Assembly: GCF_011045215.1 (NCBI RefSeq)
Contig: NZ_CP049201.1
Strand: one strand, 5' to 3'
Source: Escherichia coli
GTDB taxonomy: Bacteria; Pseudomonadota; Gammaproteobacteria; Enterobacterales; Enterobacteriaceae
DNA: 64,000 nt
The position numbers were made by a program. Below are positions 48,001 to 54,000 of the stretch, in pieces. The stretch's first letter is position 1; each line of letters starts with the position of its first letter.

Positions 48001-51000
48001 GTGCAGTTTGGGGTCGATAGGGCGACGGCACAGGCATACGTTGAAACTTATGATGGAATGAAAGTTGTAGCTGCTTCGATGGCACCAGTAATAGGTGCTG
48101 CGGCGGCCAGTAAGATAGAAGTTCTGGCTGGTAAACAACGCTTGTCTAATAGTTTCGAGGTTAGCTCACTTCCAGATGCAAATGGGAAAAATCACATCAC
48201 GGCTGTAAAAGGTGATGCTAAAATACCTGTCGATAAGATTGAACTATATATGCGTGGTAAAGCTTCTGGTGACCTTGATTCTTTGCAAGCAGAATATAAT
48301 TCTTTAAAAGATGCAAGGATTAGCAGCCAAAAAGAATTTGCAAAAGATCCAAACAATGCTAAAAGGATGGAAGTATTAGAAAAACAAATCCATAATATTG
48401 AGCGTTCTCAAGATATGGCTCGTGTATTAGAACAAGCAGGTATAGTGAATACTGCCAGTAATAACAGCATGATAATGGATAAGTTATTGGACTCAGCTCA
48501 GGGGGCTACGTCTGCAAATAGAAAAACATCTGTTGTTGTATCAGGGCCTAACGGTAACGTAAGGATTTATGCTACATGGACAATATTACCTGATGGCACG
48601 AAAAGACTTTCAACTGTTAATACGGGGACATTCAAATGATAAATGTGAATAGTACCGCAAAGGATATTGAAGGTTTAGAAAGTTACCTAGCTAATGGCTA
48701 TGTAGAGGCTGACTCTTTTAACGACCCAGAGGATGATGCGTTAGAGTGTCTCAGTAATTTATTAGTTAAAGATTCGAGGGGGGGGCTGTCATTTTGTAAA
48801 AAAATACTTAATTCAAATAACATTGATGGTGTTTTTATTAAAGGTTCGGCGCTGAATTTCTTATTATTGTCAGAACAGTGGTCTTACGCCTTTGAGTATT
48901 TGACAAGCAATGCGGATAATATAACTCTTGCAGAGCTTGAAAAGGCGCTTTTCTATTTTTACTGTGCAAAAAATGAGACAGATCCTTATCCTGTACCAGA
49001 GGGTTTATTCAAAAAACTGATGAAAAGATATGAAGAACTGAAAAATGACCCTGATGCAAAATTTTATCATCTTCATGAAACGTACAATGATTTTTCAAAA
49101 GCTTATCCTCTGAATAATTAGAAGCTATCGCCATGGAATATTGTCTATGACTGCATGGAAGGATGATGGTCATAGTGTGTTGGGAGCTATTCTTTAACAG
49201 ATTTGGGGGAAATGGTGTAACTGGCTGAAAGGGCGCGTCAGGGCAAAAAGTTGTTGCGCCGGAATTATAGCAGGACAAAGCGGTTTTAACGCGCTGAAAG
49301 CACAGGGAAAACTTGTTTTATCACAGCAACCTGCGGCGGAAAGAGTTGTTGTTGAGAATAACTTTTTGACCGCGGATCAGATCGATAGCTTTGCGGCAAA
49401 AGCAAAAGGGTGTGAAGTACGTGGCGACTGCAAACAGATTGTAAAGGAGATGGAGGAGCTCAGCCTTAAGCAACAGCAGGAAATGATAGCTGTCTGCGCA
49501 ACAAACCCTGCGGCCTGCAAAGAGAAATTCGGCGATATACCAGCTAAAGGAATGCTTGTACGAGAAGCGATAGATCGTGTGTTAGGTGCAGATGTACCGT
49601 CTGCAATGAAGAATGATATGTCTTCGTTGTTAGCTCAGCAGATCGAAGCGGAAGGTGTTGTTACCAGTACTGAATTTGCCTGTCAGCTACAAAATCGTTA
49701 CGGTATAGACAAGCAACAGGCTGAAATCCTTGCCGTCGCAGCATTGGGAGCAGTGACAGGTGGGATGGGGAAATCAGGTACTTCAACGGTAACTAAAAAC
49801 ATCGTTGTGGTTAATTCAGGTAAGAAAGGGGCCTGGAATCAAGCAATGAATAAGCCGGAACCGAATACCGTTTATAAGGTCGATGGAAATAAAACATACC
49901 AGACTGATGCATTGGGAAGAACTAGTTCAGTTGAGGGTATACTAGTTGCTTCGAAAAGCGACAGAAACACTTATCAGCAATGCAAGGCCGGGAAATGTGG
50001 TAGCTCTGGTGATGAAGGTGGTCATTTAATTGCCAGTATTTTTAATGGTCCTGGCGAAAAACTCAATCTTGTTCCTATGGATGGCAACCTGAATAAAGGT
50101 GTATGGAAACAGATGGAAAACACATGGGCTAATGCTTTGAAAGATGGCAAACAAGTTAATGTTAAAATAGAACCTGTTTACACTGGGGAGAATAAGCGTC
50201 CTGAAAGCTTTAGTGTAACATACTCTATTGATGGAGGCCGTCCTGTTATCAAAGACATCAGCAACACACCTGGAGGGGTAAAATGAACGAATTAGATGAT
50301 CTGCATAATAAAATAGGTCAGTTATTAGTGGATGCCGGTCCTGCTAATGCGATGAAGATCATTGCTCGTGCTAAATTATCACTAGATGGTGAGTCATGTG
50401 AGTATGAGTATGATTATCTTGATCAAGAGGGAGATGAAGATTGGTTCGTTCCTGATAAGTTAGCCAGTCACGATCTTAGGCTACTGTTAGTTAAAATGAG
50501 GGATTTTTACATCCGAAATAATATGACTAACGGGAAACCAGCATGGATAGGTTGTGAAATAATCGTTGATATACCAGAAGAAAAAATTAGCATAAACTTT
50601 CAATATGATGATGAACTATGATCTAGGCCCCGGGATCTCCACAATGCCCATAGCGTGTACGGTGGAACAAAGCGTGTCGGGGAAAAAATCGGCGGGCAGC
50701 GAAACGCAACAGAATAAAGGTTGTAACAAACTGAAAGAAAAGGGGAAAATCGTCTCCTTCACCACAATGCGCGTCAGAGAGAGTTGTTATTGAGAATAAC
50801 TTCTTAAGCTCTAAAGAAGCCCGACAATTCGATGAAGAACTGGTGGAATGCAAGGCTTCTGGTGGAGACTGTAAATCTGTTATTCAGAAATATCTGGATA
50901 TCAGCAACCAAAACAGTAAGGAACTGGCTGAAGCCTGTACTGGCGGTGGTGTTGCATGCGTAACTTGGGAGGAATTAATTCAGGGAAGGACTAATGTTGC

Positions 51001-54000
51001 TAATGTTGCTAATGATCCACATTCCGGACAATTCAGACTGGATGAAAAACTTAAGGATCCCGATGCGGTCGCTATTGTGAATTATCTCAACGGCTCAGAC
51101 CTCAAGTTCCTTAAAGATAATATTACAGAGGGGGATCGCTTACTGTCTGTTATCAGCGATCCAACTTCATGGCCTGTTGCTGTAATGGGAGGAAAGGCCT
51201 TTATCACCAATGCAGTCAATAATACTAAAGAACAGCTTATAGCTGTGGGGGTTGGTGTTGGATTAGGGGCCGGTATTTAGCAACAGGCAGCGTTGCCCTG
51301 TTACCGGGGAGTGCCCAGGCTATGTGGTTACTTGGTGCCGGGACAAATGCCGGGATGCAGTATGCAGATAGTGGTGAAATAAACCCGGTCAACTCAGTGG
51401 CAGCAGGCTGGATAAATGTGATAACCATGGGGCAGGGCTGGAAAGGGACAATAGCCTGGAATGCGGCAGGTGGAGCATTAACCAACGCCATAAACGGAGA
51501 TGATCCTCTTACTGGGGCGATTACAAATGGAGCGGGGGCCGGGTTTGGATATGGGGTTGGCAATTATGTGGTCAAGCCTGCTGCAAATACAATCGGTAAA
51601 TGGATAACCGGTGGCTGGAATCCTAAATTCGATCCGACTCTACTAAAATATACTGAAGTTAAAGGGCAGTTAGGTCTATCTAAAGAAATGGTACCGAGTA
51701 AGATCCCTGGTGCTGTGGGTAATGCGGGTGGTAGTTTATCATCTGAGTTTGGAAGCTCCATTATCCAGAAAAAGAAAGATGCAATGGAGGCTGGGAAATG
51801 AAGAACCTTCTTATTGTTGTCTTATTAATGACTGTATGCATATTTGGTTTGTTTATAGTCGGTTCGATTTTTTATCTTCTTCTGAAGATATTTATGTATT
51901 TTTATTTGAATGCCCCAATATCATTTGAAGTTTTTCAGTTTTCTAGACTGTTAAAAATGAGTGTGTATGGGGGGGGGATCTTAGGCTTGGGTATTGGTTT
52001 GTTGCATATCATGAAAGTTAAGGGGTTCTGAAATGTTGTTGAGAATAACTACCTCAGCTACGACGAGGTACATGCTTTTGACAGAGAAATGACTGTCTGT
52101 CGTAAAGCTGATCGTGAATGCGGAGATATTCAGAACAAGTATGCTGTAATTAATGCTGATAACCGGTTGAAATAGCATATTAATGTAGCTGTTGTTCCTC
52201 TGACGTATCAACCACCCTCAGAGTGATTGACATCAGATAGAAATATTAGCATCATTATTTCATCAAATAACTCTCATTAACAATGGAGATAATAAAATGA
52301 AAAAACTGTCAGTTCTTTCAGCCATCATATTATCAGTGGCAAGCGGTTCCGTGCTGGCTGACAACCATTCGTTTTCTGTCGGTTATGCACAGAGTAAAAT
52401 TCAGAACTTCAAGAATATTAGAGGGGTAAACCTGCAGTACAGGTATGAATGGGACTCCCCGGTCAGTATTATGGGCAGTTTCTCCTGGATGAAAGGGGAT
52501 GGTAATCAGGAATATCATTCATATGGCGATTCAATTAAAAACCAGGTTGATGCAAAATATTATTCCTTACTGACCGGCCCCGTATGGCGCATTAACGATT
52601 ATATGTCACTGTATGCGGCTGGCGGCGTGGCGCATGTTAAAGCTGATGGTAAAACAGCATGGACAAACGTTGATGGTTATTTCGCCAGAGAAAATATTTC
52701 GAAAAAATCCACATCTTTTGCTTATGCTGCCGGGGTAATGATCAATCCGACAAGTAATATTACAATTAATGCCGGATATGAAGGAACCAGAGCAAAACTT
52801 GGCGATAATTATTCCATTAATGGATTCAATATTGGCGTGGGTTATCGCTTTTAATAAAGTAGAATGAACATAATAGCGTTCATATCTGTTTTTTTACTTA
52901 ACCAAGCGGTACATATATGTACCGCTTGTCTGTAATAAATCAATACCGCCTGTAACGGTACGAATGACTATTGCCATGAACGCAATCATGTTTCTGTTGT
53001 TGCCGAACATCGTTCTGTGCAGAGGCTTTTGGTGTGCCTTCCATCAGCCAGCGTAATGATTCTCAGGCAATTTTGTATCGTTTCGGTTAACTCATACTGA
53101 TGCGTCGGTGGCGGGGCATCCGAACGATCGCAGTCTGACAATGGTCGATTTATTTTGCTTGCGCAGGGGCGAGCGCCAGGCTGGTATCGGAGGCGGGTTC
53201 TGAAGGACTGAGTCGGGTAATTGCGTCAGGTCGCGAAGTACTGACACGGGTACTGGTGGCAGGTGATGAAGTGCAGCCCCGGGAATGGCTCCGGGCTGAC
53301 TCAGGTTCTGATTCGCTGTCAGCCCGCGTGGTGGCTGGCCTGGCTCATTTCCTGTCGTCAGGCGTTCAACTCCCGACTGCAGATTATGGCACGCTGCAAG
53401 AACACCTGACGACAGGTATCACTCACCCGGAGAAGGTAAATCCCTCAAGGGGCAGCAACTCTGCCAGTCGCTCCTCTGGCCATTCCGGCAGACGCGCCAG
53501 GACGTCTGTCAGCCAGGCATGTGGCTCCAGACCATTACGTTTTGCCGTTTCCAGAAGGCTCATTATCTGTGCCGCGCGGTTTCCGGCCATCAGTGAACCG
53601 GCGAACAACCAGGCCTTTCGTCCCATAACGACCGGGCGGATAGCACGCTCGCAGATATTGTTGTCCAGGGGCACGGCTCCGTCACCCAGGAAGCAGCTCA
53701 GTTCATCGCGCCGGTTCAGGATATAATTAATCGCTTTGTTTAGTGGTCCGTCGGGCGGACAGCACGGCTCCTGCTCTTCAAGCCAGGCAAACAGGTCATT
53801 CACTATCGGCCGGGAATACCGTTGTCGCCATTGCCGTATTTTTTCCACAGGACGTTCACGGATGAACTTCTCAATGCGATAAAGACCCGCGATTTTTCTC
53901 AGCGCCATGGCTGCACGGGGCTCCCTGCTGGCCTTATACAGACTGGCGAAGCCGCGTCTTGCGTGGCTCCAGCAACAGGCAGATGTAATACCGGGGTCAT

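Follow-up and report, generated by a model that had tools for sequence, protein, structure and literature searches.

A probable stack of displaced CdiA toxin-immunity cassettes downstream of a class IV cdiBCAI locus in Escherichia coli

We analyzed a stretch of 64,000 nucleotides from Escherichia coli (contig NZ_CP049201.1 of RefSeq assembly GCF_011045215.1; hereafter the window) for an array of orphan toxin and immunity modules that had been predicted downstream of its contact-dependent growth inhibition (CDI) locus. The locus lies on the + strand and comprises cdiB (37027-38766), an open reading frame (ORF) for a two-partner secretion transporter with the ShlB/FhaC/HecB family label in homologous E. 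coli loci; cdiC (38776-39303), encoding an HlyC-family lysine acyltransferase (Pfam HlyC, PF02794, E = 4.6e-32; no NCBIfam model matched it); cdiA (39319-48639), an ORF of 3106 amino acids (aa) with the main VENN motif encoded at 47626-47637; and the main immunity gene cdiI (48636-49121, 161 aa). Because cdiC sits between cdiB and cdiA, the locus is of the class IV cdiBCAI type, for which CdiC has been described (PMC8510554). The C-terminal toxin tip (CT) of the main CdiA is a Kp342/EC869-type tRNase and matched Kp342-type tRNase structures in the PDB (6VEK_A, E = 2e-214; 6CP8_A, E = 2e-99). NCBIfam gave zero matches for every toxin, immunity or cdiC ORF of the locus, PADLOC gave zero matches, and an Rfam search over 48000-53500 returned nothing credible.

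Translation of the + strand downstream of cdiI showed three open frames headed in frame by the predicted VENN-type motifs, VVVENNFL (49351), VVIENNFL (50786) and VVENNYL (52035). No in-frame ATG, GTG or TTG lies upstream of any of the three motifs, and the earliest possible starts fall after them (TTG 49366 in orphan 1, GTG 50843 in orphan 2). The frame of orphan 1 (49198-50286) includes AERVVVENNFLTADQ, with VENN at 49351-49362. The first frame of orphan 2 (~50732-51280) includes SERVVIENNFLSS, has IENN instead of VENN (50786-50800) and ends at a TAG stop (51278-51280); its second frame spans 51277-51801. Orphan 3 (52035-52175) reads VVENNYLSYDE...NRLK to its stop and is the 46-codon stub that had been predicted. 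The VENN-coding 12-mer GTTGAGAATAAY occurs in three copies in the window (47626, 49351 and 52038), where chance alone would give 0.01; all three are on the + strand and fall in a span of 4.5 kb, and the fourth motif site (IENN, 50789) is a one-base variant in which ATT replaces GTT. Similarity between the main cdiA and the orphans extends over ~11 nucleotides (nt) at the motif, and between sites over 11 to 32 nt around it. The short pretoxin remnant that each fragment was expected to carry could not be recognized as PT-VENN sequence: the open frames of modules 1 and 2 extend upstream of their motifs, Pfam found no PT-VENN domain there, and orphan 3 has no upstream remnant, its VVENN starting one codon past the stop of the preceding immunity gene. 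The spacers at 49122-49350 and 50622-50785 (the latter queried as 50600-50800) gave nothing significant in blastx searches against CdiA and IS66 proteins. Two small ORFs are present, of 112 aa (50283-50621) and 77 aa (51798-52031), with GGAGG 6 to 7 nt before each ATG; they provide orphan 1 and the second part of orphan 2 (orphan 2b) with an adjacent immunity ORF that has its own start and Shine-Dalgarno sequence, while none accompanies the first part of orphan 2 (orphan 2a) or orphan 3. The fragments thus lie downstream of an immunity gene on the same strand, carry a VENN motif and lack initiation signals, as orphan cdiA-CT/cdiI modules do, and what follows VENN in them has homologs among the tips of full-length CdiA from other loci (the main tip of locus L009 for orphan 1, E. 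coli SCU-152 for orphan 2a, CdiA fragments P0003 and P0017 for orphan 2b), which bears out the orphan array of the original prediction.

Orphan 1 (49198-50286, +) consists of VENN, a DUF6862-type entry domain and an Endonuclease_NS_2 DNase domain (~49861-50235), as delimited by translation, Pfam and PDB searches. It matched the whole of Pfam Endonuclease_NS_2 (PF13930, E = 5.3e-39, model positions 1-132 of 132) and the Staphylococcus aureus nuclease toxin EssD (PDB 8GUO_B, E = 1e-15). The predicted product is therefore an intact Endonuclease_NS_2 (EssD-like) DNase tip, as anticipated from its likeness to EndoNS2/YeeF-type nonspecific nucleases, and falls under type 6 in the catalogue of E. coli CdiA-CT toxins (Table 2, PMC11630599). 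Its region is 96% identical at the nucleotide level to an orphan of strain 1303 (L007, which may be GenBank AJF58502.1), and from this identity and the strain 1303 row of the same table its entry would be MetI dependent. The ATG of the 112-aa orphan immunity gene 1 (50283-50621, +) overlaps the stop of the toxin fragment, with GGAGG 6 nt upstream. By itself, the 112-aa sequence matched the Pfam YezG-like family weakly (PF04634, E = 0.07) and had no match in the PDB, whereas a profile built from 47 of its homologs matched EsaG (8GUO_A, E = 3.3e-7) and the DUF600 protein BH3703 (E = 4e-4), and Pfam YezG-like was found at E ≤ 0.001 in 14 of the 47 (best E = 8.6e-11). Predicted membership in the YezG/DUF600/EsaG family thus holds for the homolog family and not for the single sequence by itself, and at that level the ORF fits the immunity role proposed for it. 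EssD and EsaG are two chains of one PDB entry, 8GUO, of which the toxin matches one and the immunity profile the other.

Orphan 2 is composed of glycine-zipper CDI ionophore material from two parents. Orphan 2a (50786-51280, +) comprises VIENN, an ionophore entry domain of the group-4 (YciB) type and the first ~14 residues of a pore domain; positions 50790-51277 are 97% identical to the main cdiA of SCU-152 and ~86% identical to cdiA genes on plasmids from mouse strains, and the SCU-152 cdiI, its cognate, is absent from the window. Orphan 2b (51277-51801, +) is the pore domain of a group-5 (TMC005-like, PuuP/PlaP-dependent) alpha-helical ionophore CT, with a glycine zipper GxxxGxxxG (GAGAGFGYG) but without VENN and without its ~45-aa entry domain. 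Positions 51277-52153 are 98% identical to an orphan of strains 08-00022 and ZYB62 that runs in frame after VENN and a 45-aa entry segment (LLGGSELLQTEKAREHG...AAA), and orphan 2b is 97 to 98% identical to TMC005-like in-frame CTs on full-length CdiA fragments P0003 and P0017, where the group-5 tip stands on genuine CdiA C-termini (that of P0003 on the same scaffold as in the window). The group assignments derive from primer sequences and one database label, the peptide strings and the SCU-152 accession being absent from the supplements of PMC11630599: CdiA of the M8 plasmid (WP_073535323), with an entry domain near-identical to orphan 2a, bears the label group 4 in that paper's S1 Appendix, and the TMC005 primers encode VENNLLGGSEW, the start of the 08-00022-type tip, and HIMKVKGF plus stop, the end of the 77-aa ORF of the window. 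Group 4 CDI ionophores use YciB (PMC11630599). In a three-way DNA alignment the switch point falls between GGTAT and TTAGCA, within a junction at 51275-51279 (+) that has ATT microhomology, is 1 nt out of frame (−1 frame change) and itself creates the TAG at 51278-51280. Between the two parents, the pore domains share homology (32% identity, E = 5e-18); since the join lies ~26 residues off their homologous register, the junction, as aligned, is illegitimate and not homologous. Type-10 ionophores carry entry and pore domains in one frame behind VENN; orphan 2 instead has two parents, two frames and the stop between them. A 9-nt tandem duplication (AATGTTGCT twice, adding NVA) is present at 50993-51010 in the group-4 entry fragment relative to SCU-152 and L009, and accounts for the 145-aa and 142-aa variants of the shortened product, which has at least 25 database entries, including from Escherichia marmotae.

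Orphan immunity gene 2 (51798-52031, +; GGAGG 7 nt upstream) encodes 77 aa with a strong hydrophobic segment at residues 2-35 and a weaker, Gly-rich one at 55-72, as expected of the membrane protein predicted to follow module 2. The cognate CdiI proteins of these ionophores are very hydrophobic two-helix hairpins of 72 to 100 residues (PMC11630599), a description that the 77-aa ORF fits by length and hydropathy, making it a candidate CdiI of the group-5 ionophore. The exact protein was found in 39 contigs, with 94 cluster members. A G9 tract (51969-51977) lies inside the gene and is G8 in 08-00022 (L002) and L012, giving a frameshift that could reflect slippage or assembly error. Orphan 3, a stub of a DUF6862-type entry domain without an immunity gene, is shortened compared with a longer version in 08-00022, and the same truncation occurs in L009-L011.

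Exact-protein look-ups recovered loci L008-L012, among them those of the complete genomes LR134270.1 and CP181449.1. Full-length CdiA in these loci is ~3067 aa long, shares its pre-VENN sequence with the window (...SGASAVAGAQSGKTTVENN) and runs straight on into FLTADQIDSF...GGVK and a stop. Downstream come the 112-aa gene, then the chimeric orphan with the 77-aa gene behind it, the stub and an Ail/Lom gene, all as in the window. The toxin tip of orphan 1 is identical to the main tips of these CdiA proteins over 921 of 921 nt, and its immunity gene (336 nt) is 100% identical to that of L008-L015. Alignment by blastn with L009-L011 placed 44000-47636 of the window directly against 49350-53250, with a 12-nt overlap, the synteny breaks falling exactly on VENN 12-mers. 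What the window has in addition is a cassette of 1,725 bp (47626-49350, +) made up of VENN, the tRNase CT, cdiI (48636-49121) and a 229-nt spacer, flanked at either end by the VENN-coding 12-mer and absent from L009-L011; as a single block of ~1.7 kb, the tRNase cassette is also carried in strains ZYB62, 08-00022 and A12 (L001, L002 and L004). Across strains one CdiA scaffold carries three different tips, including the group-5 tip as main toxin in P0003, and EndoNS2 and group-5 tips both occur on that same scaffold in the population. The exact arrangement of the window was not found at ≥80% coverage in 5,426 complete RefSeq E. coli genomes, and was found at 99.9% identity in the draft assemblies L014 and L015. 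The stacking order of the same cassettes differs among strains, with boundaries almost always on the VENN 12-mer. In L016 (1-5506), ZYB62 and A12 the tRNase cassette, too, occupies an orphan position, and the L016 copy keeps at least 650 bp of pre-VENN sequence.

Because the identical toxin tip and immunity gene form the main pair elsewhere, and because the window has an extra VENN-bounded cassette, the simplest reading is that orphan 1 would be a recently displaced former main toxin, pushed out by the incoming cassette. Extended to the whole array, we consider it highly probable that the region is a layered stack of displaced cdiA-CT/cdiI cassettes left by successive acquisition of toxin tips at VENN. 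New tips would have been acquired one after another at the VENN-coding site of a class-IV-type cdiA, older cassettes remaining stacked downstream; in the latest step, the 1,725-bp tRNase-CT/cdiI cassette would have entered at VENN and pushed the EndoNS2 tip and its immunity gene into the orphan position. Orphan 2 is an older, dead chimera, a group-4 entry domain fused out of frame to a group-5 pore with the group-5 immunity gene left intact. No terminator-like site was found on the + strand between 48300 and 53000, and promoter-like sites were not enriched (10 found versus 13.4 expected), with no sign of separate orphan promoters; from these scans, the array is likely to be co-transcribed by read-through from the cdi promoter. 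Since they have no start codon, the toxin fragments would stay untranslated, while the good Shine-Dalgarno sequences suggest that both immunity genes are expressed. Judged from the sequence, the orphan toxins are thus probably silent and the two intact immunity genes still protective, in which case their products would protect the cell against neighbors with a CdiA tipped by the EndoNS2 DNase or by the group-5 ionophore. In EC93, the orphan stretch is co-transcribed and the orphan CdiI is made, while the orphan CT was not detected (Poole 2011, PMC3150448). Several points weigh against this account. The direction of the event (insertion rather than deletion) is assigned by parsimony, as deletion between the two VENN 12-mers would yield the same pattern; promoter and terminator scans are weak evidence; substitutions in the immunity genes are too few for a synonymous/nonsynonymous selection test; and the MetI, YciB and PuuP/PlaP dependencies are taken over from the tables of PMC11630599.

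Another way to see the array, which takes the reservoir idea of the original prediction further, is as an active switching reservoir in which recombination at VENN-coding sequences regularly puts orphans back onto cdiA and changes the toxin that is deployed. This is a published model (Poole 2011, discussion; PMC3150448), and both the cassette boundaries on VENN in relatives and the three tips on one scaffold in different strains agree with it. However, with only ~11 nt in common between the main VENN region and the orphans of this window, reloading by direct homologous exchange would be an inefficient process, and the comparative pattern is accounted for by incoming DNA and not by internal reshuffling. 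A simple crossover would also delete the current cdiI and leave the cell open to inhibition by its siblings (as noted in Poole 2011, PMC3150448), and orphan 1 alone is intact, so that of the three fragments it is presumably the only one that could give a working toxin if rejoined to cdiA. We therefore regard regular reloading as unlikely at this locus; the comparisons point instead to displacement by an incoming cassette.

The silence of the orphan toxins in the displacement account is opposed by a further reading, in which their translation begins at internal starts and the products serve inside the cell as a toxin-antitoxin-like addiction module, stabilizing the island. RefSeq does annotate internal-start products in such frames (a 278- or 306-aa "DNA/RNA non-specific endonuclease" and a 159-aa "adhesin"), but a Shine-Dalgarno sequence is missing at TTG 49366, the AAGGAG at the internal ATG (MEELS...) directly abuts it with zero spacing, and orphan CT protein was undetectable in EC93 (PMC3150448), which together make an addiction module very improbable.

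The chimeric orphan invites two interpretations of its own. The exact 26-nt junction, with its run of three T (T3, 51276-51278), is present in all 10 of the independent loci recovered, including LR134270.1 and CP181449.1; no in-frame hybrid was found among 5.8 billion proteins, and a pattern search for the junction that let the T run vary had no match in a one-genome-per-species collection. Being identical in 10 independent assemblies, the junction is not a sequencing error, and it is an inherited pseudogene junction older than the tRNase insertion. That orphan 2 is a cryptic natural entry-domain swap, in which a +1 slip in T3 and reloading would yield a toxin while the G9 tract toggles immunity, the whole forming a phase-variable reserve, strikes us as extremely doubtful. 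The same holds for the related idea that VENN-bounded cassettes insert through a short-repeat mechanism of their own, in place of ordinary recombination. The original prediction had read module 2 as one ionophore CdiA-CT gene broken near 51278 by a simple frameshift, possibly a sequencing error; both halves are indeed glycine rich and of one toxin superfamily (32% identity), and one added T in the T3 run restores a continuous frame, but the halves match different genes at 97 to 98% and diverge exactly at 51277, the join is ~26 residues out of register, in-frame hybrids are lacking from the protein search, and the 10 assemblies share the same T3 junction, so that a simple frameshift or sequencing error is effectively refuted by the two-parent matches and the 10-locus junction, and the ionophore character of the module is borne out.

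To the right of orphan 3 lies an Ail/Lom/OmpX-family outer-membrane protein gene (52297-52854, +; NCBIfam), a flank that is conserved in L002 and L008-L015. Beyond it an IS66-family tnpA/tnpB/tnpC element (53423-55741, −) was recognized by eye from translations and from the RefSeq annotation of homologous loci, and L009-type synteny ends at ~53250, near this element. A 160-aa ORF at 55859-56341 matches the LptA family (TIGR03002, 97.7 bits against a cutoff of 71.7) and would be an accessory LptA-like periplasmic protein adjoining the CDI locus. Far upstream, window positions 1-12000, the region of poxB-hcp-ybjT, match complete E. coli genomes at 99.8% identity. Two CRISPR-DR4 repeats (23407-23494; 50 bits each in Rfam) are found in the interval from clpA (20902-23193) to an integrase gene (23951-25153), and there is a borderline match to RtT RNA (23598-23733, −). 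ARAGORN found no tRNA in the whole 64-kb window.

The predicted immunity profile of the strain would include resistance to CDI toxins of two kinds, the type-6 DNase and the group-5 ionophore. The analysis also corrects database labels, as these ORFs appear as "adhesin," "hypothetical protein" or "tRNA nuclease" in RefSeq and GenBank. Two RefSeq names are apparently wrong, "effector tRNA nuclease" for the ionophore-tipped SCU-152 CdiA (L005, 1-3875) and "adhesin" for the fragment with the pore domain.

Among known systems, the EssD/EsaG pair of the S. aureus type VII secretion system and YeeF/YezG resemble module 1 in that its toxin is homologous to EssD and its immunity family to EsaG. Here, the nuclease forms a tip of CdiA behind a domain for entry into the Gram-negative cytoplasm, and the single immunity sequence is a weak match (E = 0.07). 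The motif of Rhs proteins is PxxxxDPxGL, whereas the scaffold here is CdiA and the motif VENN. In other respects the displacement of C-termini described for rhs genes (Jackson et al. 2009, cited in PMC3150448) is alike: a new tip and its immunity gene take the place of the old tip at a conserved motif, and the old tip stays downstream as a start-less fragment. Alpha-helical ionophores of type 10, groups 4 and 5 (Halvorsen 2024, PMC11630599), share with orphan 2 the group-4 entry domain and the group-5 (TMC005) pore with its 77-aa CdiI, and the functional entry-domain hybrids engineered in that study have their boundary near the natural junction described here; in contrast to them, the natural junction is out of frame and register, retains part of an additional helix, lacks a start codon and is detached from cdiA. 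The closest likeness is to the orphan modules of EC93 and EC869 (Poole 2011, PMC3150448), which also lie downstream of cdiI on the same strand, start at VENN without a start codon, retain a variable amount of pre-VENN sequence or none, have tips homologous to those of full-length CdiA, and are each followed by an immunity gene with its own Shine-Dalgarno sequence. There is no categorical difference from them; here, a sister arrangement survives elsewhere in which orphan 1 is seen as the main toxin, and one module is a two-parent chimera. Every component is thus of a published kind: orphan modules (Poole 2011), a type-6 tip and type-10 groups 4 and 5 (Halvorsen 2024), and an EssD/EsaG pair. We see in the locus a clean natural example of how orphan arrays are built at CDI loci, with no new mechanism. 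Modestly new are a natural, dead entry-domain swap near the boundary of functional engineered swaps and a clear before-and-after pair for one displacement event, in which sister genomes represent the state before (EndoNS2 tip on cdiA) and the window the state after, with the tRNase cassette between VENN 12-mers and an undecayed orphan downstream.

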